Assembly: GCA_964617525.1 (NCBI GenBank)
Contig: CAZTWG010000007.1
Coordinates: 1 to 15,045, forward strand
Origin: an uncultured Gammaproteobacteria bacterium
Lineage (GTDB): Bacteria; Patescibacteriota; Patescibacteriia; UBA2591; UBA6264
DNA length: 15,045 nt
Direction of reading: 5' to 3'
The translations under genes and the position numbers were made by a program. Positions 1 through 15,045 of the stretch are shown piece by piece (position 1 is the first letter of the stretch; every line of letters begins with the position of its first letter). A model generated the notes under the pieces. The model worked only from the letters and a program-made list of their open reading frames with translations, was not told the origin of the DNA and made no database searches.

Positions 1-53
1 ATATAAGGCATTCATATGATCTTTTGGCATAAAGATATTTTTTTTCTTGGTTT

Positions 54-1700
54 TCATATTTTTATTTTGTAAACAATTGCTTGTTCATCTTCGTAAACTT
101 TTTTTAAGTTTGTTGACCTTTTTAGCAATTTTACGAATTTTCCATCGTTTCTACATTTAGAAGCGATAATATATGAGGAGTTAAATCTTTCTTTAATCAC
201 TTTTGCTGTTTCATTTGGGTTTGTCTTCCCTGAAAATAAACTAAGCCAATCATCATAAAGTTTTTTATCATATTCATACATAAATGTTTGGTCTAAACCA
301 TTTATATAATAGTGACTATCGTCAAAGTAAAATAATTCCGGAAATATGTCCCAATTGCTATGGAATATTATTTCTTGGGGAGGAACATTGTTTTTAACCC
401 ATTGAGTTGCTCCCTGAAGGTGATTGACTGGGCGAGCTAAGCTCTGATAATTTTGTCTTGAATTATAAACTCCACGGATTAAATAGAAGCCAAGAAAAAA
501 AATGCAAACTGAACTTAATATGATTGTTGCAATAAAATAAAAATTATTTTCAGTTGAACGAAACAAACCTTTAATTTCCTTTTTAACTTTATCCCAGTTT
601 ATACTTTTTATAATCTGCGTAAATATTAATGCATTAAAAATAATGAGTGTAGGTGTTAGATATTCAATAATTCGGCGGGCTTTTAATGTATAGAATAAGA
701 AAAATAGAGATATAAAGAAGAAGAAGAATTCCTTTGTTTTTTGTTTTTTAATATAGACAATAAACCATGCAATTGAAATAATGTATGGCATCAAAAGTGG
801 TAAGGCATCAATGTAAAAATTAGATACTTTTGGCGCATACCATTCTGCGCCAACTCCAATTATATTTTGATAATTTAGGGCGGCAATTTTTATTGTTTGA
901 AACCAATAAAAAGGAAGTGTTTTTGGAAAATAGGGATTAATGATAAGCCCAGATAGCAGTCCGAATGTGCAAGCGCATAATAGTTTGTTGTTTGTTCTAC
1001 TAAAAAATAATTTTAAAAAAAGAGTGAATTTTATTGATTTTTTGTTAATTAATTTTTTTATAGCATATGAAAAACAATAAATAAGCACGCAAATAAACAT
1101 TAAAGGCCATCCCCCATAAAACCAAACGTAAAGAAGGGAAATTATAAAAACACCTAAATATTTTTTTTTGACAATAAGATAAAAACCTAAAATTAAAATA
1201 ACCAGAGAGAGCGCTGGACTCCGGCTAAGGGACATTCGATTTAAAAAATTCATTATAAGCAAACTGCTTAATGCCCAAAAAATAGGTATTTTAGCCTTAA
1301 ATCGGCGGAGTAACCAATAGATTGCTAAAATAGCTAGACCTGCGAAGAAAGCGCTAGCTAGCTTTACTTTCAGCAAGGGGTCTATTTGCGTAGATAGAGC
1401 GTCAAGATTTTTAGGAGTTGGAATGCTTAAAAATGGTAGAAGTAAAAAATGATATCCAAAATGATGGTCAACAAATAGATTTTTATAAGTGGTAAATTGA
1501 GTCCATGGGAAATTTTTAACAACACCGCTTTCTTTTATGAGTAGTGCCATTTTAGTATGATAAAATCCGTCGGGACATAGTAATGTCGGTGGAGCTAAAA
1601 CATAAAGAAAAATAATAAAAGCAATGGTGAATATTATAAAATAAAGCAACCATCGCCTTTTAGATATGGAATTATAAATTTTATAAACAAAGTTAAGCAT
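54..1700 (-). CDS. polytopic membrane protein, probable GT-C-fold glycosyltransferase (ArnT/PMT/STT3-like); family not resolved
   Basis: 548-aa ORF from the track, ATG at 1700, TGA stop at 54-56. By eye it has about 10 or more hydrophobic helices (e.g. WLLYFIIFTIAFIIFLYVL, LASAFFAGLAILAIYWLL, LVILILGFYLIV, FIISLLYVWFYGGWPLMFICVLIY, FFFFFISLFFLFY, FYFIATIILSSVCIFFLGFYLI). An acidic/aromatic motif PDGFYH sits right after TM1, where GT-C enzymes carry their catalytic Asp loop. The C-terminal ~130 aa look soluble. The function is inferred from architecture, not from a recognised signature. Confidence 0.6.
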   Translation of the reverse strand: MLNFVYKIYNSISKRRWLLYFIIFTIAFIIFLYVLAPPTLLCPDGFYHTKMALLIKESGVVKNFPWTQFTTYKNLFVDHHFGYHFLLLPFLSIPTPKNLDALSTQIDPLLKVKLASAFFAGLAILAIYWLLRRFKAKIPIFWALSSLLIMNFLNRMSLSRSPALSLVILILGFYLIVKKKYLGVFIISLLYVWFYGGWPLMFICVLIYCFSYAIKKLINKKSIKFTLFLKLFFSRTNNKLLCACTFGLLSGLIINPYFPKTLPFYWFQTIKIAALNYQNIIGVGAEWYAPKVSNFYIDALPLLMPYIISIAWFIVYIKKQKTKEFFFFFISLFFLFYTLKARRIIEYLTPTLIIFNALIFTQIIKSINWDKVKKEIKGLFRSTENNFYFIATIILSSVCIFFLGFYLIRGVYNSRQNYQSLARPVNHLQGATQWVKNNVPPQEIIFHSNWDIFPELFYFDDSHYYINGLDQTFMYEYDKKLYDDWLSLFSGKTNPNETAKVIKERFNSSYIIASKCRNDGKFVKLLKRSTNLKKVYEDEQAIVYKIKI

Positions 1701-1758
1701 TACTTCATTTTATCATTAACATTTTACTTTGTCTATTTAAAATGTTAATATACTATAT

Positions 1759-2481
1759 ATGAGTGGACATTCTAAATGGTCAAAAGTAAAACATTCTAAG
1801 GGGGCTTTAGATGCCAAAAGAAGTGCCTTGTTTACCAAACTCGGCCAAGCTATTATTATTGCAGCTAGAGAGGGTGGTGGTGATTTAGATTCTAACTTTA
1901 AACTTCGTTTAGTTGTAGAGAGAGCAAAAAAGGCAAATTTACCCAAAGATAATATAGAAAGAGCAATTAAAAGAGGTACGGGAGAAATAAAAGGCAAGAA
2001 GATAGAGGAAATAACCTATGAGGCATTTGGGCCTGGAGGCACTGCTTTTATTGTAGAAGTCTTAACAGATAACAAAAACAGGATTGCCACTAGTCTTAGA
2101 ATTATTTTCAACAAACATGGAGGGAGCTTGGCTGGCAAAAATTCAGTTCTTTGGATGTTTAATCGTTTAGGGGTTATTCGTATAAACTCTGATTTGATTG
2201 AAAAAAACAAGGAGGAGTGGCAATTAAAGATTATTGAGTCAGGCGCAGAAGATTTTAAAGAAGATGGGCGGGAATTGGTTATCTATACAAGTCTTAATAA
2301 TTTACAAAAGCTTAAGGAAGTTGTTGAAAAAGATGGGTTAGAAACAGAAAGCGTGGGAATAGAATGGATAGCGAAAGAATTAATCAGCATTGATGAATCT
2401 AAGAGACAAAAGGTTGCCACTATTTTCGAAGAACTGGAAAATGACCCTGATGTTCAAGACTATTATACCAACATTAGATAG
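1759..2481 (+). CDS. yebC: YebC/PmpR family DNA-binding transcriptional regulator
   Basis: 240-aa ORF. The N-terminus MSGHSKWSKVKHSKGALDAKRSALFTKLGQAIIIAAREGGGD...NFKLRLVVERAKKANLPKDNIERAIKRGTGE is the hallmark YebC/TACO1 signature. It lies directly upstream of ruvC, the conserved synteny. TAG stop. Confidence 0.95.
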   Translation: MSGHSKWSKVKHSKGALDAKRSALFTKLGQAIIIAAREGGGDLDSNFKLRLVVERAKKANLPKDNIERAIKRGTGEIKGKKIEEITYEAFGPGGTAFIVEVLTDNKNRIATSLRIIFNKHGGSLAGKNSVLWMFNRLGVIRINSDLIEKNKEEWQLKIIESGAEDFKEDGRELVIYTSLNNLQKLKEVVEKDGLETESVGIEWIAKELISIDESKRQKVATIFEELENDPDVQDYYTNIR

Positions 2482-2534
2482 AAATTATTAGAATATGGAA
2501 TGAAAATTCCTAATACCCAAATGATAAAAGTGAA

Positions 2535-2614
2535 AATTGCTGGTTGCTGATTGTTTAAAAATCCACAAATAGCTAGCAATTGATAACAGCAATCAATAAT
2601 TAACAATTGGTCAA
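2535..2614. repeat. intergenic repeat element, copy 1 (TTG/CAAT-rich, self-complementary)
   Basis: Block 1, TTGCTGATTGTTTAAAAATCC (2544-2564), matches 7137-7156 with one substitution and one T indel. Block 2, AATAATTAACAATT (2595-2608), matches 7181-7194 at 13/14 positions. Block 1 starts 63 nt after the yebC stop. The element is followed by a T/G-rich tract (2615-2660). Confidence 0.6.
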
Positions 2615-2665
2615 TTTAGTTTTGTTGTGTTGTTCTGTTAATTTGTTTAAATGTTTTAATATTTT

Positions 2666-3178
2666 ATGATTATTCTAGGAGTTGACCCAGGGTACGCGAT
2701 TACTGGATATGCTATTATTGATGTTGATGCTCAAACTAAACTAATATCTTTGCTCGATTATGGGTGTATTTTATCTTCCTCTAAAGATATTTTTTCTAAA
2801 AGATTATTAATTGTTTACGAGAAGATTAAAGAGATAATAGAAAAATATAATCCAGACAAGATAGCTGTAGAAAGTATTTTTTTTGCCAAGAATGTTAAGA
2901 CTGCTATTAAGGTTAGCCAAGCTAGAGGGGTTATTGTTTTGGCAGCTGCGATTAAAGATATTGAGGTTTTGGATTTTACTCCTTTACAAGTCAAGCAAGC
3001 TTTAACTGGCTATGGCAGGGCTTCTAAAAGTCAAATTCAACAAATGGTGAAAAATGTTTTGAAACTAAAAAGTATTCCACGTCCAGATGATGCCGCCGAT
3101 GCGTTGGCTATCGCACTTACTTGCGCGCAGACAAAGTCATGGGAACATAAGAACAAGTTGAAGCTACCTGGGGACTGA
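2666..3178 (+). CDS. ruvC: crossover junction endodeoxyribonuclease RuvC (Holliday junction resolvase)
   Basis: 170-aa ORF. MIILGVDPGYAITGYAII carries the first catalytic Asp, AVESIFF the catalytic Glu, and PDDAADALAIAL the C-terminal acidic pair. Length is typical. TGA stop at 3176-3178. Confidence 0.95.
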   Translation: MIILGVDPGYAITGYAIIDVDAQTKLISLLDYGCILSSSKDIFSKRLLIVYEKIKEIIEKYNPDKIAVESIFFAKNVKTAIKVSQARGVIVLAAAIKDIEVLDFTPLQVKQALTGYGRASKSQIQQMVKNVLKLKSIPRPDDAADALAIALTCAQTKSWEHKNKLKLPGD

Positions 3179-3225
3179 GTTCCTAAGCAATAAATGTTTG
3201 GACGCTCAGTGTTTAAACAAATGAG

Positions 3226-3254
3226 AAAAATACAGGGAAACCTGTATTTTTTTT
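3226..3254. terminator. bidirectional Rho-independent terminator between convergent ruvC and the LysM-CHAP gene
   Basis: AAAAA-TACAGG-GAAA-CCTGTA-TTTTTTTT. The 6-bp core stem (3231-3236 / 3241-3246) has a GAAA tetraloop, an A5 run upstream and a T8 run downstream. It therefore reads as a hairpin plus U-tract on both strands. It lies in the 141-nt gap between two convergent stops. Confidence 0.65.
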
Positions 3255-3319
3255 ACTTGGGGGCCGAGTTTTCAATTAGATTATTTTTTTATGCTCTGAT
3301 GTTATTATACTCTCACGCT

Positions 3320-4543
3320 CTAACGCTTTGGATATATGTACCCTACTATTTGCCATCTACCTTGAGACGTGCTTTGCCACGCAGTTGTTCTTTTTAATCT
3401 TCTGGTAACTGGTTTTTGTGTCCAACTTGGATTTGACGGGCCGTTCATTTCCGAGAAATAAACATAGTCATTGTCAAATTTTTCTATATAAGCGACATGT
3501 CCATACCAATTATTACATCTCAAAACCACTATTGACCCTTCGTCGCCCTTGTTTAGAGTTAATCCTGTTCTGAACCCATCGTTTCTAGCGTTTTGTAGCC
3601 ATGTTCTAGCATTTCCCCAATTATTTGGACCTACACATTGACCCAATTCAGTCGCCCATTTATAGGCCACCCAATCAGTGCATTGTCCTGGTTTCGTGTA
3701 GTAACGTTTACATGATGCACAACAACGTTTATATCTCCAATCTGTATAACTACAATTACTTTTTTCAGTGGCTGTAGATAGAGAGGTTGTTGCTCTTGGT
3801 TTGTAAACTGGTTTTAATTTTGGCAAAGGTGAGGCTTCAGGGATAATTAGTGTTTCCCCTACTTGTAAATTATCGGGATTAATAAGGTTGTTAAATTCAA
3901 TTATTTTTTCGCTATCTGCTTTGTATTTTTTTGCAATTTGCAAAAGTTTTTCGTCCTTTTTTATTTTATGTAAAATTCCATCTACGGGTAGAATTATTAA
4001 TTTGTCTCCAGGTTGAATATTGGCTCGCCAATAAGTTAAATCATTTGCCCAAAGTATGGTCCAAACACTTAGGCCGAATTTTTCAGCAATATTCCAAGGA
4101 TTATCATTAGGTTTGACTATATAGTATTCAATTTTAGTTCTGGTGGGTAAAATATTTTTATTGACTTCATTGTTGGAAGCAACTAAAGCAGTATTATTTA
4201 AGGTTAGCGGAATTTCAGATGGAGCCCCTTCTTCTCTTAATAGAGTGGCGATTTGGAAATCATGATTTTCTTCCTCTAAATCTTGCTCAGAGGAGATTAT
4301 ATCTAAATGAATGTTTTCGTTAGTATCTTCGGAAAAAATAATATTATTACTTTGATTTATTGTTTGAGAGTAAGAAAATAACACAAAAAATAAAACAGCC
4401 ATGATGATAGGCAGTTGTTTTCCTGGTTGTAATTTTTTAAAGGTTTTAGATAGAAAATGTCCAAAATAAATAACACGAAGAATGCTTCCCTTTAAAGCTT
4501 TGATACTATGCCTGACAATTTGTCGTAATAGTTTATCTTGCAT
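3320..4543 (-). CDS. membrane-anchored/secreted peptidoglycan hydrolase: 2x LysM + C-terminal CHAP amidase/peptidase domain
   Basis: 407-aa ORF. There is an N-terminal hydrophobic anchor (LPIIMAVLFFVLFSYS). Two LysM repeats are present: YYIVKPNDNPWNIAEKFGLSVWTILWANDL...IQPGDKLIILP and LHKIKKDEKLLQIAKKYKADSEKIIEFNNL...LQVGETLIIP. The CHAP signature has the catalytic Cys in GQCTDWVAYKW and the His in YGHVAYIE. TAG stop at 3320-3322. Confidence 0.85.
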   Translation of the reverse strand: MQDKLLRQIVRHSIKALKGSILRVIYFGHFLSKTFKKLQPGKQLPIIMAVLFFVLFSYSQTINQSNNIIFSEDTNENIHLDIISSEQDLEEENHDFQIATLLREEGAPSEIPLTLNNTALVASNNEVNKNILPTRTKIEYYIVKPNDNPWNIAEKFGLSVWTILWANDLTYWRANIQPGDKLIILPVDGILHKIKKDEKLLQIAKKYKADSEKIIEFNNLINPDNLQVGETLIIPEASPLPKLKPVYKPRATTSLSTATEKSNCSYTDWRYKRCCASCKRYYTKPGQCTDWVAYKWATELGQCVGPNNWGNARTWLQNARNDGFRTGLTLNKGDEGSIVVLRCNNWYGHVAYIEKFDNDYVYFSEMNGPSNPSWTQKPVTRRLKRTTAWQSTSQGRWQIVGYIYPKR

Positions 4544-4603
4544 AAAACGATTTTTTTTTGTATGATAATAATTATTATGCCTAAAATTGTAAAAAAATCA
4601 AGT

Positions 4604-7072
4604 ATGAGTTATCAACATCTGAATTTAAACGCGAAATGGTTTAAAATTTGGGATAAGTTGGGGGTTTATCACACATCAGAACAAACAGACCAAGAAAAAA
4701 AGTATATTTTAGTTGAATTTCCTTATCCATCTGGGGATGGTTTACATCTTGGGCATGCTTTTGCTTTTGTTGGAGCTGATATTTATGCGCGCTTTCAAAG
4801 AATGCAAGGGAAAAGAGTACTTTTCCCCATGGGTTGGGATGCCTTTGGTTTGCCAACTGAAAATTATGCCATTAAGACCAAAGCTAATCCTCGTCAAATA
4901 ACTAAAAAGAATACGAATAGATTTAAAGACCAGATGAAAGAACTGCAACTTTCATTTGACTGGGAGATAGAAGTCAACACCACTGACCCTGATTATTATA
5001 AATGGACTCAGTGGATTTTTGTTGAATTATTCAAAAGGGGATTAACATACAAAAAGGAAATGCCTATTAATTGGTGTCCTAAATGTAAAATAGGGTTAGC
5101 TAACGAAGAGGTAGTGAATAATAAATGTGAAAGATGCGGAGCTGAAGTTTCGCGTAGAAATATTTCTCAGTGGATTGTAAGGATTACAGATTACGCAGAC
5201 AGATTAATCGATGGTTTATCTCAAACAGATTTTATCAAAAAAGTTAGAACAGCGCAGATAAATTGGATTGGGAAAAGTAATGGGGCGGAAGTTATCTTTA
5301 AAATTAAAACTAACAGAAAAGAAGAGGATTTAAAAATATTTACAACTCGTCCAGATACATTATGGGGAGCGACTTTTATGGTTTTAGCCCCAGAACATCC
5401 TTTGATTAATAAATTTTTAGATAGCGATTCTATTAATTCTACTATTAAAGAAAAAATAAAAGAGTATATAACTAAAAGCAAAAATAAATCCGATTTAGAA
5501 AGAACAGATTTAGCTAAAGAAAAAACAGGAGTTTTTAGTGGATTTTATGCAATTAATCCTGTAAATAGTAAGGAAATTCCTATTTGGATATCTGATTTTG
5601 TTTTAATTTCATATGGGACTGGAGCTATTATGTCTGTTCCTGCTCATGACCAAAGGGATTGGGAGTTTGCTCAAAAATTTGGTTTAGAGATAATTCCCGT
5701 AATTCAACCTTCAACGAATTGGGATTTTAAAAAATGTGCTTATACCGATATTTCAAACGGAAAAATTGTAAATTCTGAACCAATTAATGGTTTGAGCCCA
5801 GACGATGCTTTTGAAAAAATGATCAATTGGTTGGAAGAGAAAAAGATAGGTAAAAGAGCTAAAAATTATCATTTAAGGGATTGGATTTTTTCTCGTCAAC
5901 ATTATTGGGGTGAACCAATTCCAATGATTTATTGTCCTAAATGTGGATGGCAACCCGTTAAAGAAGAAGACCTGCCCATAAAACTTCCAGAGATAGAACA
6001 TTATGAACCAACCAATACAGGAGAAAGCCCTTTGGCTGAAATTGAAGAATGGGTTAAAACTGTTTGTCCTAAATGTGGAGGTCCAGCGAAAAGAGAAACA
6101 GATACTATGCCGAATTGGGCGGGTTCAGATTGGTATTTTTTAAGATATACTGACCCCAAGAATAAAAAGATGTTAGCTAGCAAAGAAAAAATGAAAAAAT
6201 GGCTTCCAGTTGATATTTATATTGGAGGAGATGAACATAATACTCTTCATCTTCTATATTCTCGTTTTATTTATCAATTTCTATGGGACATCAATGTTGT
6301 GCCAAAAGAGAATCTAGAGCCATATCAAAAAAGAGTGTCTCATGGAGTAATTCTTGGCCCAGATAACCAAAGGATGAGTAAATCTAAAGGTAATGGGATT
6401 GCCCCAGAAGAAGTAATAGGAAGGTTTGATAAATATGGGTCAGATATTTTAAGAATGTATCTAATGTTTATTGGACCCTTTGAGGGAACTATGGCATGGA
6501 ATGACCAAGCGCTAATGGGTATAAAAAGATTTTTGGAAAAAATAGAGGATTATATTGATTCTTGGACATCTTCCCAAAAAGAGCATCCAGAAGCAATACA
6601 TAATAATGATATAAAACCTTTACTACATCAAACAATAAAAAAAGTAACTGAAGATATTAAAAATTTAAGATATAATACAGCTATTGCTTGTTTAATGGAA
6701 TTTTTAAATAAAATAAAAGCAAAAAAGGGTAAGATAAACCAAGATGATCTTGAAATTTTTCTTGTTCTTTTATCCCCATTTGTCCCTGTTTTTAGTGAGG
6801 AGCAGTTACAAAAAATTGATTCGTCAGTACAAAGTATTTTTTTGAAATCTTGGCCAAGGTTTGATTGTCAGTTGGCTAAAAATAAAAAAATTGAATTTGT
6901 TGTGCAGGTTAATGGTAGAATTAGGGGTAGGTTTAAGACTAAAATTGGGCTTTCCCAGGAACAAGCTGAAAAAAATGTTTCTTCAATGCCTCAAATCCAG
7001 AAATATTTACAAGGAAAAGAAATTAAAAAAGTAATTTTTATCCCTGACAAATTAATTAATATGGTTATTTGA
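4604..7072 (+). CDS. leuS: leucine--tRNA ligase (LeuRS)
   Basis: The HIGH motif (HLGHAF), KMSKS motif (RMSKSKGN), CP1 editing-domain start (TTRPDTLWGATFMVLAPEHP) and two CxxC...CxxC zinc knuckles are all present. The track ORF begins at 4538 and would overlap the divergent 4543 start. I place the start at ATG 4604 (MSYQHLNLNAKWFKIW), which gives the usual spacing from Met to the conserved KW..W. ATG 4577 is an alternative. TGA stop at 7070-7072. Confidence 0.92.
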   Translation: MSYQHLNLNAKWFKIWDKLGVYHTSEQTDQEKKYILVEFPYPSGDGLHLGHAFAFVGADIYARFQRMQGKRVLFPMGWDAFGLPTENYAIKTKANPRQITKKNTNRFKDQMKELQLSFDWEIEVNTTDPDYYKWTQWIFVELFKRGLTYKKEMPINWCPKCKIGLANEEVVNNKCERCGAEVSRRNISQWIVRITDYADRLIDGLSQTDFIKKVRTAQINWIGKSNGAEVIFKIKTNRKEEDLKIFTTRPDTLWGATFMVLAPEHPLINKFLDSDSINSTIKEKIKEYITKSKNKSDLERTDLAKEKTGVFSGFYAINPVNSKEIPIWISDFVLISYGTGAIMSVPAHDQRDWEFAQKFGLEIIPVIQPSTNWDFKKCAYTDISNGKIVNSEPINGLSPDDAFEKMINWLEEKKIGKRAKNYHLRDWIFSRQHYWGEPIPMIYCPKCGWQPVKEEDLPIKLPEIEHYEPTNTGESPLAEIEEWVKTVCPKCGGPAKRETDTMPNWAGSDWYFLRYTDPKNKKMLASKEKMKKWLPVDIYIGGDEHNTLHLLYSRFIYQFLWDINVVPKENLEPYQKRVSHGVILGPDNQRMSKSKGNGIAPEEVIGRFDKYGSDILRMYLMFIGPFEGTMAWNDQALMGIKRFLEKIEDYIDSWTSSQKEHPEAIHNNDIKPLLHQTIKKVTEDIKNLRYNTAIACLMEFLNKIKAKKGKINQDDLEIFLVLLSPFVPVFSEEQLQKIDSSVQSIFLKSWPRFDCQLAKNKKIEFVVQVNGRIRGRFKTKIGLSQEQAEKNVSSMPQIQKYLQGKEIKKVIFIPDKLINMVI

Positions 7073-7134
7073 TTATTAATGAGTCAGAACACTATATAAC
7101 GAACAAAAATATTAATGCTTAGATATCAAACCAG

Positions 7135-7196
7135 AATTGTTGATTGTTAAAAATCCGAAAGCAGTCAACAATCGACAACTAATAATCAACAATTAA
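7135..7196. repeat. intergenic repeat element, copy 2 (hairpin with two alternative 3' partners)
   Basis: TTGTTGATTGTT (7137-7148) pairs with AACAATCGACAA (7167-7178). This is 12 bp with one G-U wobble on the + strand RNA, and the 18-nt loop is AAAAATCCGAAAGCAGTC. Alternatively AATTGTTGATT (7135-7145) is a perfect complement of AATCAACAATT (7184-7194). Blocks 1 and 2 are shared with 2544-2564 and 2595-2608. Block 1 starts 65 nt after the leuS stop. Confidence 0.6.
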
Positions 7197-7223
7197 TTTG
7201 CGTTGCGTATTTTATATATAATA

Positions 7224-8129
7224 ATGAGTGTTCTAAAAGAAACTAAATCTACTTGCAAGCAGTATAATTTTGTCCCTTTGCGTCGTCGGGGGCAAAATTT
7301 TTTAATTAATCCTAAGATTATTGAACGGATTATAGATGTAGCTAAGATAGATAGGGAAGATATTATTCTAGAAATAGGTCCAGGTCTAGGAGCGTTAACA
7401 GAAGAAATTGTTAACAAATGCAAAAAAATAATTGTAGTTGAAATTGACCAAAAGTTAGCCCAGATATTGAAAGAGCGTTTAAGAAAACATAAGAATATAG
7501 AAATAGTTAGAGCTAGTATTTTAGATGGGATTCCAGACTTGAGTCTAAAAGGAAAGAAATATAAGGTAGTGGCTAGCTTGCCTTTTAATATTGTTGGTAG
7601 AATTTTAAGAATTTTAATGACAGAGAAAGATAAATTAGAATCAATTGTAGTGGTGGTTCAAAAAGAAGTTGCTCAAAGGATAATTGCTCAACCTCCCTAT
7701 ATGTCTCTTTTGTCTTTATCAATCCAATTTTATAGCCGAGTAAATGTTGTTTTTGATATTAATAGAAGTAATTTTTGGCCACAACCTAGAGTAGATTCAA
7801 CTGTGCTAAAAATAGAGCCAAAAGAATGTAAGGTTAAAAAAGAAATTGAAAATAATTTTTTCCGACTTATTAAAGCTGGCTTTTCTTCTAAGCGGAAATA
7901 TTTACTTAACAATTTATCTAAAAATGTTATAATGCAGGATATAAAATACAAAAAACAAAAAACAAACAATAAAAAACAAACAATAATTAATAATCAAATG
8001 AATTATTTTATCCCCGGAAAAAAAGAATTTTTTTTAAATATTTTTAGAGAAATTGGGTTGAATGAAAAAGTTAGAGCGCAAGAATTATCAATTGAACAAT
8101 GGATACAACTTGCGAGCAAAATAAATTAA
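7224..8129 (+). CDS. rsmA: 16S rRNA (adenine1518/1519-N6)-dimethyltransferase RsmA/KsgA
   Basis: RRRGQNFLINPKIIERIIDVA plus the SAM-binding ILEIGPGLGALTEEI motif, and the C-terminal RAQELSIEQW helix. The track ORF starts at TTG 7203. The first ATG (7224, MSVLKE...) is the more likely start. The gene contains a K/N/Q-rich insertion of about 35 aa before the C-terminal helix. Confidence 0.9.
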   Translation: MSVLKETKSTCKQYNFVPLRRRGQNFLINPKIIERIIDVAKIDREDIILEIGPGLGALTEEIVNKCKKIIVVEIDQKLAQILKERLRKHKNIEIVRASILDGIPDLSLKGKKYKVVASLPFNIVGRILRILMTEKDKLESIVVVVQKEVAQRIIAQPPYMSLLSLSIQFYSRVNVVFDINRSNFWPQPRVDSTVLKIEPKECKVKKEIENNFFRLIKAGFSSKRKYLLNNLSKNVIMQDIKYKKQKTNNKKQTIINNQMNYFIPGKKEFFLNIFREIGLNEKVRAQELSIEQWIQLASKIN

Positions 8130-8139
8130 TTTAAAATAT

Positions 8140-8832
8140 ATGCCTAATAAATCTAAAATTTTGTCATTATCTTTTTTGTCAGCGCTGTCTTTGTTTATCT
8201 TGGTTTTAGGTTTTTTACAGATTAGGGGAACGATTTATGGTCCGTTTAGAGGTTTTAAAAAATCTAATACAGAGAAAAAAATGACATTAACGCAAGAAGA
8301 GATTTTATCTGTTTTGTCAGAACAGGCTAAACAAGAAGACACGGACAAAGACGGTCTTTCTGATTATGACGAAGTTTATGTCCATAAAACATCTCCATAT
8401 ATTGAAGATTCTGATAGCGACGCTTTCTCTGATGCAGAGGAGGTAGAAGCTGGTAGTGACCCATTAAATTCTTTTTCAACGCCTTATCGTCAGGGCAAGG
8501 ATACAGAAAGCAATTTATCAGAAGATTCTATGCCTCAAGTTACTGAGAACGAACAATTTTCCTCAGAAGATATTCGAAATTTTTTAATTCAAGCGGGAAT
8601 AGATAAAGAAATTCTAGACAATATTGATGACAATGAGTTGAAAAAGTTATATAATAATACTAAAGAAGAAACAGGAATTGACCCGCAGGATTTAGGGTTG
8701 CCATCTTCTCCTGAGGTTGATATTTCTTTATTAAGGCAATCTCTGATAGATGAAGGAGTTGATGCTTTGATGTTAGAACAAATAGATGATGATACGTTAA
8801 AAGCAATGTTTTTGGAAAACTTAAAATATTAA
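8140..8832 (+). CDS. membrane-anchored acidic protein with thrombospondin type-3-like Ca-binding repeats and a duplicated C-terminal helical motif
   Basis: 230-aa ORF starting 10 nt after rsmA. The N-terminal anchor/signal is ILSLSFLSALSLFILVLGFL. It carries TSP3-like repeats and two copies of a ~26-aa motif at a 53-aa offset. TAA stop at 8830-8832, only 3 nt before the giant ORF's ATG. Confidence 0.8.
   Translation: MPNKSKILSLSFLSALSLFILVLGFLQIRGTIYGPFRGFKKSNTEKKMTLTQEEILSVLSEQAKQEDTDKDGLSDYDEVYVHKTSPYIEDSDSDAFSDAEEVEAGSDPLNSFSTPYRQGKDTESNLSEDSMPQVTENEQFSSEDIRNFLIQAGIDKEILDNIDDNELKKLYNNTKEETGIDPQDLGLPSSPEVDISLLRQSLIDEGVDALMLEQIDDDTLKAMFLENLKY
8338..8469 (+). other. thrombospondin type-3-like calcium-binding repeat region (protein domain)
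   Basis: DTDKDGLSDYDEVYVHKTSPYIEDSDSDAFSDAEEVEAGSDPLN follows the bacterial TSP3 pattern D-x-D-x-D-G-x-x-D-x-x-E ... G-[ST]-D-P-x-N. This match is from my memory of the family consensus. Confidence 0.65.
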
Positions 8833-8835
8833 AAC

Positions 8836-8943
8836 ATGAAGTTTAAGAAATTAAATAATATTTTTACGAAAGGAGCAATTTCATCAATAATGCTTATATT
8901 AATTGTTTCTTCTTTTTTGTTTTTACCTGGAAGGGCTCAAGCT
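8836..8943 (+). other. Sec-type signal peptide of the giant protein
   Basis: MKFKKLNNIFTKGAISSIMLILIVSSFLFLPGRAQA|QF has a Lys-rich n-region, a ~16-residue hydrophobic core, and an A-x-A (AQA) cleavage motif. Confidence 0.75.
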
Positions 8944-11900
8944 CAATTTATTGTTAATGATACAGTTAAGACCGTTCGGGATGCAGTTAAATGGGCATGG
9001 GATAAAGGTGGGGCTGTTGCTTATAGAAACTCTTTAAATTTTTTCTTACAACAAGCCGCCAAACAATCTGGTGAATGGCTAGCAACTGGTGATGTAGGCA
9101 AAAAACCAGCATTTTTAACTGATCCAGATTTTTATAAAAAAGCGGGAGACCAAATGTTGGGAGAATTTGTTGATTCTGTGGCGGGTAATTTTTTGGGGCA
9201 GAGTCTTTGCGATACCTTAGATCCAACGGTCAAATTTAATATGTTAGCGACATTAGACCCAAATTATAACAAAATGAAATGGGCAAAAGAGCCAAAATGT
9301 TCTTTTACTCAGATTAAAAAGAATCTTAAAGATGCTAGCAAAAAGAAACTATTTGAATTTTCTGCTGACGTGAAAGAAGGAAAAGTTGCGAAACAGCGCT
9401 CTAGTATTAGCACCATAATCCAAGGTGATCCAATTCTAACTGAAGGGATGAAACATATTTTAGATGGTAAATTGGATATTTGTCCTGGGGATGGCAAAGA
9501 TGTTTTGCAATGTCCTGCAGGAGCGATTAATTGTGGGTTAGGAAATGTTTTTTATTTCTACGAAGAAGGTTATATAGGAGTTGGAGCTCAATTACATAAA
9601 TATACTAATGAATTTGAGGATATTTTGTCAGCCCTAAGGCATGATGAAAAAGTTATAGAACTTGCTCCAGGTGAAGAGGCGCCTGAATTAGATCCAAAAG
9701 CCCCTATAAACCAGACAGCAGCTGCCGCTTTTAAAGATTTAAAGAAAAAATTAGACCCAAAGGAAACAACGGCAAGTATAAGTATATGGGGGGACGGAAC
9801 TGGAGTTGGTTTAAATACGTTAGGTTTAAAATATTTAAATAAAACGAGTTCAGAATGTTCTAGGAAGAGCCCAAGTGATGTGTGTGATGAAAATAAATGT
9901 GTTCTTATATGTGATATTGGTGGAGCTGATTTATGTAAAGCTTCAGAAGAATCTAAATCAGAATGCTATAATCGTATCAAAAGAGTTAATAAATATACAA
10001 AGCAATTAATAGAATGGGCGACGACTCTTTATGATATGATAACTCAGGTTACTGAGAATTGGGAGGCACAACAAGGTATGCCTGACTTGGATCCATTAGA
10101 AGATGCTAGTAATATGTTCAATCCAGAAAGTAATCCTATGGGTATACAGATGGAGTTAAAAAGCAAATTATTTGAAAAACAGACGGATGCGATTGAAAAG
10201 AGTAAAACTTTCAGAGATATCCAAGGCTCAATGAATGCAGTGACCTCAAAAGTTTCTGGCATCGTTAAGCTACCTTCTACTTTTGTGAATGAAAAGGCGC
10301 GAGAATCTGTAAAAGCCGGGACAGCTAGTTTTAATACTTATACGGGCGTGGCTTTAGCTGATGCTCTCGGAGTTTTTGTCAATACTTTTTTAACTCAATA
10401 TGCTAAAGTTTTTATTGAAGGGCTTAACCCTGCTGCTGACAGTAGTAGGGTTACTACTACTAGCGATGAGGACGAAACACCAAATCCAGACACAACATCT
10501 ATTTTAAGCGATATAAAAGTAATTCCTATTAATCAAAGCAGTAATGAAATGACAATTTACGATGAATTCGCGGTTTGTCCTACCGGAACTGACCAAAAGT
10601 ATAAATCTCAATTTAATTGTTTGTTAGACAATAAATTAGCTCGGGCAGTAGAAGAAAGAATGACCATTCAAGAAGCTATGGCAAATGGTCTTCTTAATCA
10701 GGATGAACGTTTGGGTATACGTGGAGACAAAAGCGGTTTGCTATCAAAGAATCATATTCAAAAATTACGGCTGATTGGCATTCTGCCCTTAGGTGCGCAA
10801 ATTGCTAGTGAAATAATTATGGAAGGGCCACATACTAGTAGTGGAGTGACCTTGTCTGACGTAGTAGATGGATTTGACAAAAGGGGAGAAGATGGCATTT
10901 GTGGCACTTCTGACACGGGAGAAAGTGAATTTTGTAATTTAGTTGACCCTAACTGGGTTTTGAAAGCTCCTAGTTATTTGTGTGAAATAACAGGTTATTC
11001 GGCTGTTCCTTTGCGTGATAGTTCTTTTCGCCAAGAATCCTGTTTAGATTTAAAAACATGTATTAACGAGACAGAAAGCAATCAATGTGATACTTGGTCC
11101 TATTGCACTCGCGAAAAGAATGTTTGGCGCTTTGGAGGCAATGAATGTGATTCTCAGTATAATACCTGCACTTCCTATGTTCAAAAGAGTAGTAAAGAGA
11201 TTTCTTCTTATCTTTCCAATACTTTAGATTTTGATAATTGTAGCGCTAGTAACGTGGGCTGTAAGTGGTATTGTTCAAGGTGGGACCAAACATATTCAGG
11301 AGTAGGTGGTGATTGGGCTTGCACGTCTCCTGGTTGGCGGCAATATACTTGTTATTTAGGAGACGTATGTAATGCTTCTAATGGGTGTGACTGTGCTTGT
11401 GACGGAGATAATGGTTGCCCAGATGGTTTGGGGAATTGTTTGGTTGCAATGGGGGGGATTTCTTGCTCTTTGGAGATGCCAGAATTAAGAAATGTAGCCT
11501 TTTTCAGTGACCAGATTAAGGAATGCCAAGAGTCTAACGAGGGCTGTTCTCAATATATTAGAACTAAGCCAGGGATGGGAGTTAACTTTTTGTCTAACGG
11601 AAGCTTTGAGTTGCCTTCTAAAGATGAGGATATTCCTATTGGTTGGCAGGTCAATGGTCCAGTCCAGCAGATTACTCCTTTATCTAGAGCACAAAATGGT
11701 AGCAATGTGGTGCAGATTCAAAATACTGAAACAGCAGTGGATTGCCAATTAAGTCAGTCTATTTATAACATCCCATCGCAAGGCGATTTCGTAGTCTCTG
11801 GATATTATAGGAGGAATGATACTGTGTCCTCTAGTCCTAATATGAAGGTGCAAATTTGCTACGATAATAATTGTTCTGACAAAGATGAAATAGTATCTCC

Positions 11901-14900
11901 GATTGATTTTAATGATAATAACTGGAAATATGTTTCTGTATCCTTATCTTCTGATAAAGAAAAAATTATTGACCATATTGAGGTTTTTGCTTTTGATTCT
12001 CCTAGTTTTACTGGCAATGTTTATGTTGACACAATGCAACTTAGAAACGAACCCATGAATTCATCTTACAGAGAATATGGTTCTAAGGGAATTACTTATT
12101 TAAAAAGTGCTATGGGGTGGATGAATTGCTATGATAGCGACGAAAATAATGATGATGTTGATTGTGAAAATTTTGTTCAAAAGTGTAGTCTAGAAAATGT
12201 TGGTTGCGAGCTTTATTCTCCTGTTGATAATAATATGTCTGATATCCCAGCGTTGGTTAATGATTCAGATTTATGTCCTTACTCTTGTGTTGGTTATGAA
12301 ACTTTCGAAGAAATGCCTACGAATTTTGAGAATAATCAGGACAAGAGATTAGTTCATTTAATCCCGTCAACAGCTCAAAAGTGTTCTGCCCCTGGTTGTG
12401 AGGAGTTTACGAATCTAGACGCAGTTTCTGACGGAGGTGAGGGCAGAGAATATTATACATATTTACGCCAATGCATTAAAACTAATGCTCAGGGCATGGC
12501 AATTGTGAATTCTTCTGGCAACCAAATCTCTCCTGCTTCAGCTGATACTTGTCAGTATTATTATACTTGGGTTGGAGAAGATACAAGTGGGTACCAACTA
12601 AAAAAATATTATTTAGAAGCTGATTCATCTTTGGGAGGACCAGCTCAAGTTAGTCAAAATCCAAATTCAGAGTGGGGGTTGTGCGACGAAGATAATTTAG
12701 ACAATCCTCATTGTAGACAGTTTTATGATGCTATGGGCAACGTTTATTATCGTCTCTACAAAAACACTACTACATGTTCAACGGATTGTAGCCCGTATCG
12801 TCGGGTAATAGACAACTCGATTGAAATGGCGATTGGCGCGGAGGCGGAAGTGTGTAATGCCAGTGATATGGGTTGTAGGGAGTATAAAGGGTCTACTTAT
12901 GGAAATATAAAAAATCTATTTTTAGATAAATTTATTTCTAGTTCTGAACCATGGGAAAATGTTGAAATTAGTTATGAATCAATTAGCTATTTGGGTAATT
13001 CAATAAAAGCAAACGCTAATCTTGCCAAAAGGCCAGTAGATGGTTTGGTTCAAAAGGGAAAGGCTTACTCTCTATCTCTCTGGGTTAAAGGTAGTGGAAA
13101 CTATATAGCTTCTTTCGGAAATGATTTGTATTTTATCACGAGTGAACCTCATAACATTTCAGTTACTTCTAATGATTGGCAGGAAATAAGATTTGGTTCA
13201 ATTTATTTTAATAGAAATCCAGAGAATGATGAAAAATTAATAATTCAAGGCCCAAATCAATTTTATTTAGACAACATTACTCTTAATGAAATTCAAGATA
13301 ATGTTTATTTAATTAAGGATTCTTGGAATACTCCAGAGGTATGCGATATTGACGATGAGGGAAATGTATCGTTGGGCTATATGCTTGGTTGCCAGGCATA
13401 TCGTGACAGATTCCAAGACGCTCATTATCTAAAGTCATTTAGCAATCTTTGTCCAGAAAAAGAAGTTGGGTGCGAAGCTATGATTGATACCCAGAATTCA
13501 ACTTCTCCTTTTAGTGAGGAATTCAATAGCGGGTCTCCTCAGGGAGATGAAATTATTATTCCATCTGATAACTTAATTTATAGAGTTTATGATACAAGCA
13601 AGAGCTGTCTGCCAGAAGATAAAGGATGCCAAAGATTTGGTTTGCCCGAACTTGATTCTAACCAAGAAGCAATTGATTTCACAGATGTTTATTTGTTAAA
13701 TAATCCGGATTTATATAAATTGCAATCTACCTTATGCGATATAGAGGGAGAGGGATGTCAAGAATATGAAGGACAAGTATATTTTAAGGAGCCGACTGAT
13801 AATGTCTGTGAATATCGTGAAAATGTTTTTGTTGGCGGAGAAAACAAAAATGGTTGGTTTAAAAAAGGAACTAAAAATCCTTGCTATACAGAGAACGGTT
13901 TTGCCTATCAACCATATGGGTCAGTTTATGGCATTCGCACAAATAAAGATTCTTTATATGAAGGAATTGTAGGTATTTGTCCTGAAAGTCAGAATGGATG
14001 CACTCGGTTTATCAATCCAGTTGAACAAAATTTAGTTTTAAACGGTGGTTTTGAATTAGATAAGAATGAGGATAATATTCCTGATGGCTGGACTCCATAC
14101 GCTGACCCTGAAAACTCATTTTCGTTAGTAACAGATGGTTGTTTAAGTGGTAGTTGTTGGAGAGTTAATCAATCCATGGATATGGATTCTTTTTCAGCTG
14201 GCAGGCAGTATATAAAAATACAGCCAGGTTCTACTTATGAACTTTCAGCTTGGATAAAGGCAACAGATGATTCTTCTGGTAACAGCAAAATTTATCTTGC
14301 TTATACTGATAGCACGTCCTATAGTGGCCCTACTTGGCCATGGGGCATTATTATTTCTGAACAAAAAGGGTCTACGGACGGAAAATGGATAAAACATACT
14401 GTTACATTGAAAGCTCCTACAGATGCAGTGTATGCTAGCATTTTAGCTCCTTACGTTAATGGTGGTAAGGTGGACATGATGATAGATAATATTTCCTTAA
14501 TAGAAAAGAATTCCCCTAAAGGCAGTTATTATTATTTGAGCGACGGAAATATAGATGAAACTTCTTGTAATGGAATGGTTGGAATAAAAGATGGCTGTGT
14601 ATTATTTAACAATACTTCCTTTTCGGGGAAGCAATATGATTCAGCTTACACTTACGCATTAAGCGAAGCTCAAGGAGATACTTCGGTCCCAGCACAAAGT
14701 GTTGTGAATCCTCAAAGTGACAATGAAGGAGATAGTAATGTAGTTCTTAAGGTAAGACGAGATAGGGTTTGTGGTGAATGGTTACAGTGTTCGGGATATC
14801 GTTCTGTTTGGGATAGTTCTATTGATGAATATCGTCCAGTTTGTGATTCATGGATTCGTTGTGACGAATTAATTGGCTCTGGCAAGCAAGCTCAGTGTGG

Positions 14901-15045
14901 ACATGTTGTTTCTAATCCCAATCCAAGCGTTTTAAACAAAAATGAATATATTAGTCGCGATGTCTCTTGGGCAGGAATGGATTATTCAGGTTATTCTCTG
15001 CCAAATATGTATCCTATAGAAAAATTATTCCCAAGCGAAGATAAC
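8836..15045 (+). CDS. giant secreted cysteine-rich multi-lectin-module surface protein, 3'-partial (>=2,070 aa, continues beyond window)
   Basis: I translated frame 1 by hand, codon by codon, from ATG 8836 to codon 15043-15045 and found no TAA, TAG or TGA. It is not in the supplied track, presumably because no stop lies inside the window. Only short antisense or out-of-frame ORFs are listed across this span. It has a Sec signal peptide, about 76 Cys, three CBM4/9-like modules and recurrent C-x5-G-C-x2-[YFM] motifs. Confidence 0.9.
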   Translation, partial: MKFKKLNNIFTKGAISSIMLILIVSSFLFLPGRAQAQFIVNDTVKTVRDAVKWAWDKGGAVAYRNSLNFFLQQAAKQSGEWLATGDVGKKPAFLTDPDFYKKAGDQMLGEFVDSVAGNFLGQSLCDTLDPTVKFNMLATLDPNYNKMKWAKEPKCSFTQIKKNLKDASKKKLFEFSADVKEGKVAKQRSSISTIIQGDPILTEGMKHILDGKLDICPGDGKDVLQCPAGAINCGLGNVFYFYEEGYIGVGAQLHKYTNEFEDILSALRHDEKVIELAPGEEAPELDPKAPINQTAAAAFKDLKKKLDPKETTASISIWGDGTGVGLNTLGLKYLNKTSSECSRKSPSDVCDENKCVLICDIGGADLCKASEESKSECYNRIKRVNKYTKQLIEWATTLYDMITQVTENWEAQQGMPDLDPLEDASNMFNPESNPMGIQMELKSKLFEKQTDAIEKSKTFRDIQGSMNAVTSKVSGIVKLPSTFVNEKARESVKAGTASFNTYTGVALADALGVFVNTFLTQYAKVFIEGLNPAADSSRVTTTSDEDETPNPDTTSILSDIKVIPINQSSNEMTIYDEFAVCPTGTDQKYKSQFNCLLDNKLARAVEERMTIQEAMANGLLNQDERLGIRGDKSGLLSKNHIQKLRLIGILPLGAQIASEIIMEGPHTSSGVTLSDVVDGFDKRGEDGICGTSDTGESEFCNLVDPNWVLKAPSYLCEITGYSAVPLRDSSFRQESCLDLKTCINETESNQCDTWSYCTREKNVWRFGGNECDSQYNTCTSYVQKSSKEISSYLSNTLDFDNCSASNVGCKWYCSRWDQTYSGVGGDWACTSPGWRQYTCYLGDVCNASNGCDCACDGDNGCPDGLGNCLVAMGGISCSLEMPELRNVAFFSDQIKECQESNEGCSQYIRTKPGMGVNFLSNGSFELPSKDEDIPIGWQVNGPVQQITPLSRAQNGSNVVQIQNTETAVDCQLSQSIYNIPSQGDFVVSGYYRRNDTVSSSPNMKVQICYDNNCSDKDEIVSPIDFNDNNWKYVSVSLSSDKEKIIDHIEVFAFDSPSFTGNVYVDTMQLRNEPMNSSYREYGSKGITYLKSAMGWMNCYDSDENNDDVDCENFVQKCSLENVGCELYSPVDNNMSDIPALVNDSDLCPYSCVGYETFEEMPTNFENNQDKRLVHLIPSTAQKCSAPGCEEFTNLDAVSDGGEGREYYTYLRQCIKTNAQGMAIVNSSGNQISPASADTCQYYYTWVGEDTSGYQLKKYYLEADSSLGGPAQVSQNPNSEWGLCDEDNLDNPHCRQFYDAMGNVYYRLYKNTTTCSTDCSPYRRVIDNSIEMAIGAEAEVCNASDMGCREYKGSTYGNIKNLFLDKFISSSEPWENVEISYESISYLGNSIKANANLAKRPVDGLVQKGKAYSLSLWVKGSGNYIASFGNDLYFITSEPHNISVTSNDWQEIRFGSIYFNRNPENDEKLIIQGPNQFYLDNITLNEIQDNVYLIKDSWNTPEVCDIDDEGNVSLGYMLGCQAYRDRFQDAHYLKSFSNLCPEKEVGCEAMIDTQNSTSPFSEEFNSGSPQGDEIIIPSDNLIYRVYDTSKSCLPEDKGCQRFGLPELDSNQEAIDFTDVYLLNNPDLYKLQSTLCDIEGEGCQEYEGQVYFKEPTDNVCEYRENVFVGGENKNGWFKKGTKNPCYTENGFAYQPYGSVYGIRTNKDSLYEGIVGICPESQNGCTRFINPVEQNLVLNGGFELDKNEDNIPDGWTPYADPENSFSLVTDGCLSGSCWRVNQSMDMDSFSAGRQYIKIQPGSTYELSAWIKATDDSSGNSKIYLAYTDSTSYSGPTWPWGIIISEQKGSTDGKWIKHTVTLKAPTDAVYASILAPYVNGGKVDMMIDNISLIEKNSPKGSYYYLSDGNIDETSCNGMVGIKDGCVLFNNTSFSGKQYDSAYTYALSEAQGDTSVPAQSVVNPQSDNEGDSNVVLKVRRDRVCGEWLQCSGYRSVWDSSIDEYRPVCDSWIRCDELIGSGKQAQCGHVVSNPNPSVLNKNEYISRDVSWAGMDYSGYSLPNMYPIEKLFPSEDN
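11581..12051 (+). other. CBM4/9-like (galactose-binding-like jelly-roll) module 1 of giant protein
   Basis: VNFLSNGSFE...IPIGWQVNG ... GDFVVSGYYRRN ... NNWKYVSVSL ... GNVYVDTMQL. It shows the family-typical N-x-x-x-N-G-x-F-E entry, the G-x-x-Y/F-x-x-S-x-[WY] strand, the central W and the closing [VY]-x-D-x-x-x-L strand. This match is from memory of PF02018-type domains. Confidence 0.6.
12913..13293 (+). other. CBM4/9-like module 2 (most diverged)
   Basis: NLFLDKFISSSEPWENV ... GKAYSLSLWVKGSG ... NDWQEIRFGS ... NQFYLDNITLNE. It keeps the same order of landmarks as modules 1 and 3 but lacks the NGxFE entry. Confidence 0.45.
14029..14508 (+). other. CBM4/9-like module 3 (best match)
   Basis: NLVLNGGFELDKNEDNIPDGWTPY ... 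GSTYELSAWIKATDD ... GKWIKHTVTLKAP ... GKVDMMIDNISLIE. Confidence 0.65.

Follow-up and report, generated by a model that had tools for sequence, protein, structure and literature searches.

A giant cysteine-rich protein of Patescibacteria with three homologous CBM4/9-like modules in a recurring Cys-motif scaffold, and its conserved place beside type IV secretion genes

How is a very large secreted protein with several lectin-like modules built, and what might it do for the bacterium that makes it? These questions are raised by a 15,045-nucleotide (nt) stretch of DNA (contig CAZTWG010000007.1, positions 1 to 15,045; hereafter the window), which carries the following open reading frame (ORF):

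8836 to beyond 15045, + strand, frame 1: giant ORF, still open at the window end

The ORF comprises 2070 codons inside the window, which is a minimum length. Full-length close homologues measure 2,708–2,940 amino acids (aa) and are 53–71% identical, and the window carries the first three quarters of a giant protein of ~2,750 aa from an ultrasmall Patescibacteria (Parcubacteria/Paceibacteria-type) bacterium. The product starts with a signal-peptide-like segment/anchor, MKFKKLNNIFTKGAISSIMLILIVSSFLFLPGRAQAQ, and contains 76 Cys residues, most of them invariant among 14 close homologues; the secreted, Cys-rich scaffold described in an initial annotation of this DNA is therefore borne out. That annotation interpreted the protein as a three-fold super-repeat, in which a Cys-rich spacer and a lectin module resembling carbohydrate-binding module (CBM) families 4 and 9 recur as one unit, each module being entered through the same Cys junction. 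The observation holds but simplifies too much. Fold and homology both support the lectin-like reading, and the protein is better described as a scaffold of repeated Cys motifs, some of whose loops carry inserted domain cassettes.

All three modules lie within this one frame:

11584..12045, + strand, aa 917–1070: module M1, CBM4/9-like beta-sandwich (hidden Markov model (HMM) envelope; AlphaFold predicted local distance difference test score (pLDDT) 70–88)
12910..13296, + strand, aa 1359–1487: module M2, diverged CBM4/9-like beta-sandwich (hhalign, AlphaFold, Foldseek)
14026..14514, + strand, aa 1731–1893: module M3, CBM4/9-like (Pfam; AlphaFold pLDDT 70–85)

HMM envelopes (M1 aa 917–1070, M2 aa 1366–1487, M3 aa 1731–1893) and confident AlphaFold islands (aa 924–1072, 1359–1486 and 1739–1891, all beta-rich) agree with the positions first proposed for the modules (11581–12051, 12913–13293 and 14029–14508), and module size is 130–165 aa. 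Assignment to Pfam PF02018 (CBM_4_9; CAZy families 4, 9, 16 and 22, with a galactose-binding-like beta-jelly roll; gathering threshold 25.9 bits) held for the whole window protein, at 53.8 bits, and for M3 scanned alone, at 36.1 bits over model positions 1–122 of 136. M3 was the only module above the threshold. Membership of M1 and M2, which are too diverged for the Pfam model alone, rests on their homology to M3 and on their fold.

An exhaustive homologue search with aa 880–2070 returned 1,379 representatives at 50% identity (E<1e-30 for 1,077), and 165 members of this family were used for profile–profile comparison of the modules. Simpler comparisons were less sensitive: by BLASTP, M1 matched M3 with E=1e-8 and M2 was barely detectable pairwise, self-BLASTP of the whole window protein found nothing, and hhalign with profiles built from the 14 close homologues alone, which were too narrow, gave weak probabilities of 13–49%. 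With family-wide profiles, hhalign probabilities rose to 97.4% for M1 and M2 (E=1e-11), 98.4% for M2 and M3 (E=4e-15), and 99.9% for M1 and M3, the last being an upper bound as these two profiles may share some sequences. Comparisons of modules with scaffold blocks gave less than 1%. An iterated profile search, run among the segments that occupy the three sites in the 165 family proteins, recovered all three sites within 3–5 rounds from any one window module and collected none of 808 reversed or shuffled decoys.

Structure prediction led to the same grouping. An AlphaFold model of aa 1330–1540, which contains M2, is an all-beta sandwich with core pLDDT mostly 86–95, and its Foldseek matches in the PDB include the receptor-binding domains of iota toxin Ib and CDTb, CBM22, CBM4-2 and a porphyran-binding CBM, at E values down to 2e-7. 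A model of aa 880–2070, made with 10 sequences in the alignment, resolves the three modules only; it matches tandem CBM22 and CBM16 with template-modeling (TM) scores of 0.70–0.74 relative to the target, as well as proteins with several sandwiches, among them Cry protoxins and reelin repeats. Overall, the predicted folds match CBM22 (4xup), CBM4-2 (2y6j) and CBM16 (2zex, 3oea) with TM scores of 0.6–0.74 relative to the target, and the all-beta, lectin-like structures expected from the initial annotation are thus predicted. Because profile–profile comparison, decoy-controlled iterated searching and AlphaFold/Foldseek analysis agree, M1, M2 and M3 are three homologous jelly rolls of the CBM4/9/16/22 type.

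The structural neighbors suggest more than one role for such a fold. CDTb receptor-binding domain 1, iota toxin Ib and the CBM-like modules of phage tail-fiber and receptor-binding proteins (the latter found by Foldseek in BFVD) all use it to recognize a target cell surface, and they supply the best structural matches of M2 (E=2e-7). This likeness is at the level of fold only, with 13–18% identity to the giant-protein modules, and the M2 match does not establish glycan binding because some of these toxin and phage domains bind protein receptors. Ligand-contacting residues vary across CBM families. M1–M3 are putative glycan-binding modules.

CBM4/9/16/22 modules are typically appended to glycoside hydrolases, and the PDB matches of the giant protein include xylanase and glucanase CBMs, which could point to a giant polysaccharide-degrading enzyme whose modules steer a catalytic domain to its substrate. 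Yet Pfam and NCBIfam searches of the window protein and of full-length homologues detected no catalytic domain, and a PDB sequence search with the window protein and profiles A3 and A4 gave no sequence relative. Unlike typical members of CBM_4_9, the modules thus come without a recognisable glycoside hydrolase and as internal insertions in a Cys-rich scaffold. A glycoside hydrolase was accordingly rejected as a candidate, and we regard an enzyme of this kind as highly improbable.

What surrounds the modules is a recurring Cys motif. The junction peptides ECQESNEGCSQYIRTKPGMGVNFLSNGSFE, VCNASDMGCREYKGSTYGNIKNLFLDKF and ICPESQNGCTRFINPVEQNLVLNGGFE are present exactly as originally read, on the + strand in frame 1, at aa 896, 1339 and 1714 of the ORF, with their first Cys codons at nt 11524, 12853 and 13978; the spacings between module starts, 1,332 and 1,116 nt, are also as reported. 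The motif C-x(4,6)-GC-x2-[YFM] occurs in 8 copies, against an expected mean of 0.07 and a maximum of 2–3 in 5000 shuffles. The claim that each module is entered through the same junction therefore stands in that the motif precedes all three, beyond chance, but the junction does not mark modules specifically: only 3/8 strict copies precede one, five more do not, and looser copies at aa 771, 1183, 1503/1519 and 1911 have no module after them.

11524..11556, + strand, aa 897–907: junction 1, CQESNEGCSQY, Cys-clasp motif ahead of M1
12853..12885, + strand, aa 1340–1350: junction 2, CNASDMGCREY, ahead of M2
13978..14010, + strand, aa 1715–1725: junction 3, CPESQNGCTRF, ahead of M3
11239..11271, + strand, Cys aa 802: extra Cys-clasp copy, CSASNVGCKWY, no module after
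12184..12216, + strand, Cys aa 1117: extra Cys-clasp copy, CSLENVGCELY, no module after
12382..12408, + strand, Cys aa 1183: looser Cys-motif copy, CSAPGCEEF, with EYYTYLRQ 13 aa later
13450..13482, + strand, Cys aa 1539: extra Cys-clasp copy, CPEKEVGCEAM, with IYRVY 31 aa later
13606..13638, + strand, Cys aa 1591: extra Cys-clasp copy, CLPEDKGCQRF, with VYLLN 16 aa later
13735..13767, + strand, Cys aa 1634: extra Cys-clasp copy, CDIEGEGCQEY, with QVYFK 2 aa later

Several copies share a common unit, consisting of C-x6-GC-x2-aromatic, a loop, and an aromatic 'φ-Y-φ-φ-K/N' segment ('Y-Y-L-K'-like). The loop measures 2 aa after C1634, where CDIEGEGCQEY and QVYFK make up the minimal form of this motif–loop–segment unit, 13 aa after C1183, 16 aa after C1591, 31 aa after C1539, and 139–179 aa after C897, C1340 and C1715, the copies that precede the three modules. 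A regular expression written to capture the 'return strand' placed 5 copies correctly and others wrongly; the remaining copies were read by eye from the translation. The segments that follow the modules are:

12091..12108, + strand, aa 1086–1091: segment after M1, ITYLKS, which joins junction 1 directly in relatives without M1
13300..13320, + strand, aa 1489–1495: segment after M2, NVYLIKD, a beta strand in the M2 model
14524..14544, + strand, aa 1897–1903: segment after M3, SYYYLSD, which joins junction 3 directly in the family proteins P0015 and P0016

In this arrangement ITYLKS would pair with junction 1, and the Cys-motif units could be hairpins closed by disulfides.

Two further observations concern the small Cys elements. 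A direct repeat of 23 nt with 83% identity (window 13340–13362 and 13733–13755) encodes L-C-D-I-[DE] in both copies; it marks the start of the Cys-motif copies C1503 and C1634 and is the sole nucleotide-level trace of motif recurrence. Separately, family protein P0010 carries a Cys-rich insertion of ~40 aa, VMCNLDNICDVDDGCPCTIGAQSCVVHKGNDSCIIFG, within M2 (alignment A3, columns ~160–195). This insertion resembles CDCACDGDNGCPDGLGNC, aa 851–868 of the window protein, and small Cys elements therefore also seem to move within the giant protein family.

Relatives differ in which sites they fill. Site 2, which holds M2, was filled in all 165 family proteins examined and never empty, and it holds 130–199 aa in 147/164 proteins, whereas site 1 (M1) was empty in 24/156 relatives and site 3 (M3) in 55/160. 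In other proteins sites 1 and 3 hold from 30 to >500 aa, and the M3 site is expanded in P0014. Where M1 is absent (P0014 and P0016), junction 1 meets the post-M1 'YLK' segment after 6–9 residues instead of 164, and where M3 is absent (P0015 and P0016), junction 3 meets the post-M3 'YFF/YYF' segment directly; in relatives without M1 or M3 the flanking scaffold is intact and the join is seamless. Mean pairwise identity among close homologues is 0.58 for M1 and 0.54 for M3, compared with 0.69 for M2 and 0.70–0.74 for scaffold blocks, and M1 and M3 thus evolve faster than M2 and the scaffold. M2 is a constitutive part of the family, and the M1 and M3 sites differ between lineages, being empty in some, filled in others and expanded in yet others. 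Family members carry between 1 and 5 modules each, and full-length close homologues exactly 3, with none in the ~690 aa past the window; no more units thus come after the window, a question that the initial annotation had raised. Scaffold HMMs match one another, so that the extra modules of other members could not be placed meaningfully on scaffold coordinates.

A true three-fold tandem super-repeat, in which a unit of Cys-rich spacer plus lectin module was triplicated and has since diverged, is consistent with the homology of the three modules and with the motif ahead of each. It also draws on the spacers: by hhalign, S1 aligns collinearly with S2 at 59–67% probability (E ~5e-5 to 9e-5) and S0 with S2 at 74% (the two comparisons together, E ~3e-5 to 9e-5). 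These collinear alignments are weak and anchored on short Cys motifs, which carry the similarity, and neither S0 with S1 (6–11%) nor any comparison with S3 (≤3%) is significant. At the nucleotide level the module region contains only five short, chance-like, two-copy matches of 18–25 nt, in agreement with the initial remark that no repeat is visible there. We favor inserted cassettes over the super-repeat because the motif is not module-specific (at least 8 copies, five strict ones without a module), because M1 and M3 are missing from many relatives with intact flanking scaffold, and because module number varies from 1 to 5; a triplicated unit is unlikely.

Reelin repeats, in which two CBM-like jelly-roll subrepeats flank a Cys-rich EGF module, offer a parallel for a large extracellular protein where beta-sandwiches alternate with small disulfide-rich elements, and Foldseek ranks the reelin fragments 5b4x, 3a7q and 2e26 with its top multi-domain matches. 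The likeness is at fold level only (global TM score ~0.1–0.15, no sequence relationship); reelin is eukaryotic, and the Cys motif of the giant protein is not an EGF domain by Pfam.

The gene neighborhood bears on function. The order KsgA, small thrombospondin type 3 (TSP3) protein, giant gene, VirB6-like (TrbL_3), TraC-like and VirB4 is conserved, accompanied by T4SS_pilin genes. This type IV secretion context is drawn from homologues of 26–71% identity; the source contig itself ends within the giant gene. At the locus of P0012 (55% identical, on a 659-kb contig) the order is:

1, four T4SS_pilin genes
2, YebC, RuvC, LysM/CHAP, LeuRS, KsgA
3, small protein
4, giant gene
5, TrbL_3 (VirB6-like)
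6, two unknown genes
7, TraC-like
8, VirB4 (DUF87/AAA_10)
9, another pilin

The same order, plus PrgI (VirB3), is found for P0016, which is 26% identical. Neighbors were counted over 83 distinct loci, each count being limited to loci with a long enough flank:

small protein, upstream, same strand: 67/71 loci
KsgA, upstream: 58/68 loci
VirB6-like, downstream, same strand: 48/52 loci
TraC-like, downstream: 18/30 loci
VirB4, downstream: 14/30 loci

A published survey assigns type IV secretion in Patescibacteria to the Gram-positive MPF-FATA type and notes KsgA near virB4; adhesins such as PrgB were not detected for it, and the giant protein is not mentioned in the main text (PMC12102498). In the cultivated Saccharibacterium S. 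epibionticum, both the type IV secretion system and envelope proteins with glycan-binding domains are essential (PMC10633639). The role of the system in Patescibacteria has been described as completely unknown (PMC11665869).

Conserved order could simply reflect a conserved neighborhood, in which case the giant protein would be a general surface adhesin or S-layer-like protein with no tie to type IV secretion. KsgA, LeuRS, RuvC and YebC are conserved neighbors as well, the type IV secretion genes of Patescibacteria often lie beside housekeeping genes near the replication origin (PMC12102498), and P0015 has no type IV secretion genes downstream. However, a same-strand VirB6-like gene comes next in 48 of the 52 loci, whose identity to the query spans 26–71%, and it often begins within tens of bases of the giant gene. 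We consider an adhesin unconnected with the secretion system improbable.

The reading that we prefer, with a probability of roughly 0.6, is that the giant protein is a surface-exposed adhesin or recognition component that binds host-envelope glycans multivalently and holds the secretion apparatus against the host. An adhesin or recognition function seems the most likely one because the gene heads a Patescibacteria type IV secretion cluster. The protein, with its signal peptide, would be exported by Sec, and its many invariant Cys residues would form disulfides that stiffen an elongated extracellular scaffold. CBM-type modules would stick out from hairpin loops and bind host-envelope glycans multivalently, with M2 as the constitutive module and the variable, faster-evolving M1 and M3 as putative lineage-specific specificity modules. 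Encoded at the head of the cluster, as seen in homologues, the protein would take the positional place of Gram-positive conjugation surface adhesins and could hold the type IV secretion apparatus against the host. A Patescibacterium that lives as an epibiont could plausibly bind the envelope of its host, and the type IV secretion neighborhood fits this; the functional link between the giant protein and the secretion system is a proposed one.

In pCF10, PrgB is encoded upstream of the type IV secretion genes. The giant protein resembles PrgB in that it is a surface protein, large and secreted, whose gene directly precedes the VirB6, VirB3 and VirB4 homologues of an MPF-FATA type system (PMC12102498), and the two may share a polymer-binding role in cell contact. 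The giant protein differs in that it has no sequence or domain similarity to PrgB and neither a polymer-adhesin domain nor an LPXTG anchor by Pfam; it is also about twice as large, Cys-rich and Patescibacteria-specific.

Several points weigh against the adhesin reading. Housekeeping KsgA is syntenic too, in 58/68 loci, and conserved order alone is no proof of a functional link. No type IV secretion genes lie downstream in P0015, a distant member from Uhrbacteria, and the source contig, of 15,442 nt, terminates within the giant gene, so that its own downstream genes are not visible; this contig was located through the small upstream protein, an exact-match scan of metagenome contigs with the window end having given no match. 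For the modules, M1 scanned alone against CBM_4_9 scored 18.6 bits (E=0.0026) and M2 18.0 bits across 32 residues only, both under the threshold, and some CBM folds bind protein or have a purely structural role. The Cys-rich scaffold is not confidently predicted (pLDDT <40 in the AlphaFold model of aa 880–2070), and the hairpin and disulfide geometry is for this reason proposed from sequence only. Finally, an ancient duplication of a larger unit might lie behind the similarity of S1 and S2.

Gram-positive-type secretion systems need wall-spanning parts. The giant protein might be such a part, a structural, envelope-spanning component of the type IV secretion apparatus or the cell surface whose modules anchor it to the cell's own peptidoglycan or surface glycan. 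Across >1000 clusters the scaffold shows extreme conservation and invariant Cys residues; M2 is constitutive and conserved like the scaffold; and the giant gene adjoins the VirB6-like gene. Yet the variable presence and faster evolution of M1 and M3 suit a changing external ligand better, and no LysM, SLH or LPXTG wall anchor was found in the giant protein by Pfam or NCBIfam; the C-terminal consensus of the homologues likewise shows no LPXTG motif and no transmembrane segment. Self-anchoring is, on this evidence, doubtful.

More tentatively, and as something less likely than not, the adhesin reading may be extended: the family would be the host-recognition adhesin, hitherto overlooked, of the Patescibacteria (Paceibacteria-type) type IV secretion system, with a conserved Cys-stapled stalk, hairpin docking loops, CBM cassettes whose gain, loss and exchange set host specificity, and M2 providing a core function. 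The giant protein is a concrete, testable candidate for how epibionts recognize and grip host envelopes, and its variable M1 and M3 sites offer a way of predicting host range from genome sequences.

A CBM domain is in itself nothing unusual, and M3 is already annotated automatically. Automated pipelines annotate this one CBM only and miss M1, M2 and the recurring Cys motif: Pfam searches of the window protein and of full-length P0001, P0006 and P0011 returned CBM_4_9 alone, no NCBIfam model matched the giant protein, and one family member has no NCBI name beyond 'carbohydrate binding domain-containing protein'. The papers searched do not appear to describe the cassette-in-Cys-motif architecture, how large and conserved the family is, or where it sits in the type IV secretion cluster. 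Family proteins are mostly 2,000–3,800 aa long among the matches listed, and a second homologue search with the A2 profile added no new proteins. Every informatively named source belongs to Patescibacteria (Parcubacteria, Uhr-, Buchanan-, Falkow- and Komeilibacteria, Paceibacter). Many family-bearing species-representative genomes (L006–L085), which are bulk co-assembly metagenome-assembled genomes, are titled 'uncultured Gammaproteobacteria bacterium'; since all informatively named records are Patescibacteria, these titles are probably placeholder mislabels.

Within the window, whose G+C content is 28–39%, the neighbors of the giant ORF are housekeeping genes (YebC, RuvC, LeuRS and KsgA) and a minus-strand LysM+CHAP hydrolase. 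A phage or mobile-element origin was rejected on account of these housekeeping neighbors. The gene immediately upstream is:

8140..8832, + strand: small acidic membrane-anchored protein with a TSP3 (calcium-binding type) repeat (Pfam TSP3_bac)

This protein has 230 aa and an N-terminal membrane anchor, and its gene ends 3 nt before the giant ORF; the small and the giant protein are likely partners. The LysM + CHAP peptidoglycan hydrolase (window 3320–4543, − strand) keeps the same place in loci L001 and L002 and could be the VirB1-like wall-opening enzyme reported near virB4 in Paceibacteria. At 54–1700 (− strand) the window encodes a strongly hydrophobic protein of 548 aa that seems to cross the membrane several times and has no match in Pfam; at the corresponding position upstream of YebC, L001 has four T4SS_pilin genes instead.

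Three independent assemblies (L086, L087 and L088; source ENA ERZ27248007 k141_414945 and two sisters) all break within the giant gene. In alignment A1, identity drops to 26% within a 200-column stretch ~400–600 columns beyond the window end, among homologues that are otherwise ~70% identical, and this stretch may be a hypervariable region that defeats assembly. The C-terminal ~200 aa of P0001–P0016, also beyond the window and with no match in Pfam or NCBIfam, are strongly conserved even in relatives of 25–35% identity, with the consensus …FYAWAD.NHMPIRE..IDW…KNH…C…F.H.Y.C…CCF.P.V.V.DNWGWC.

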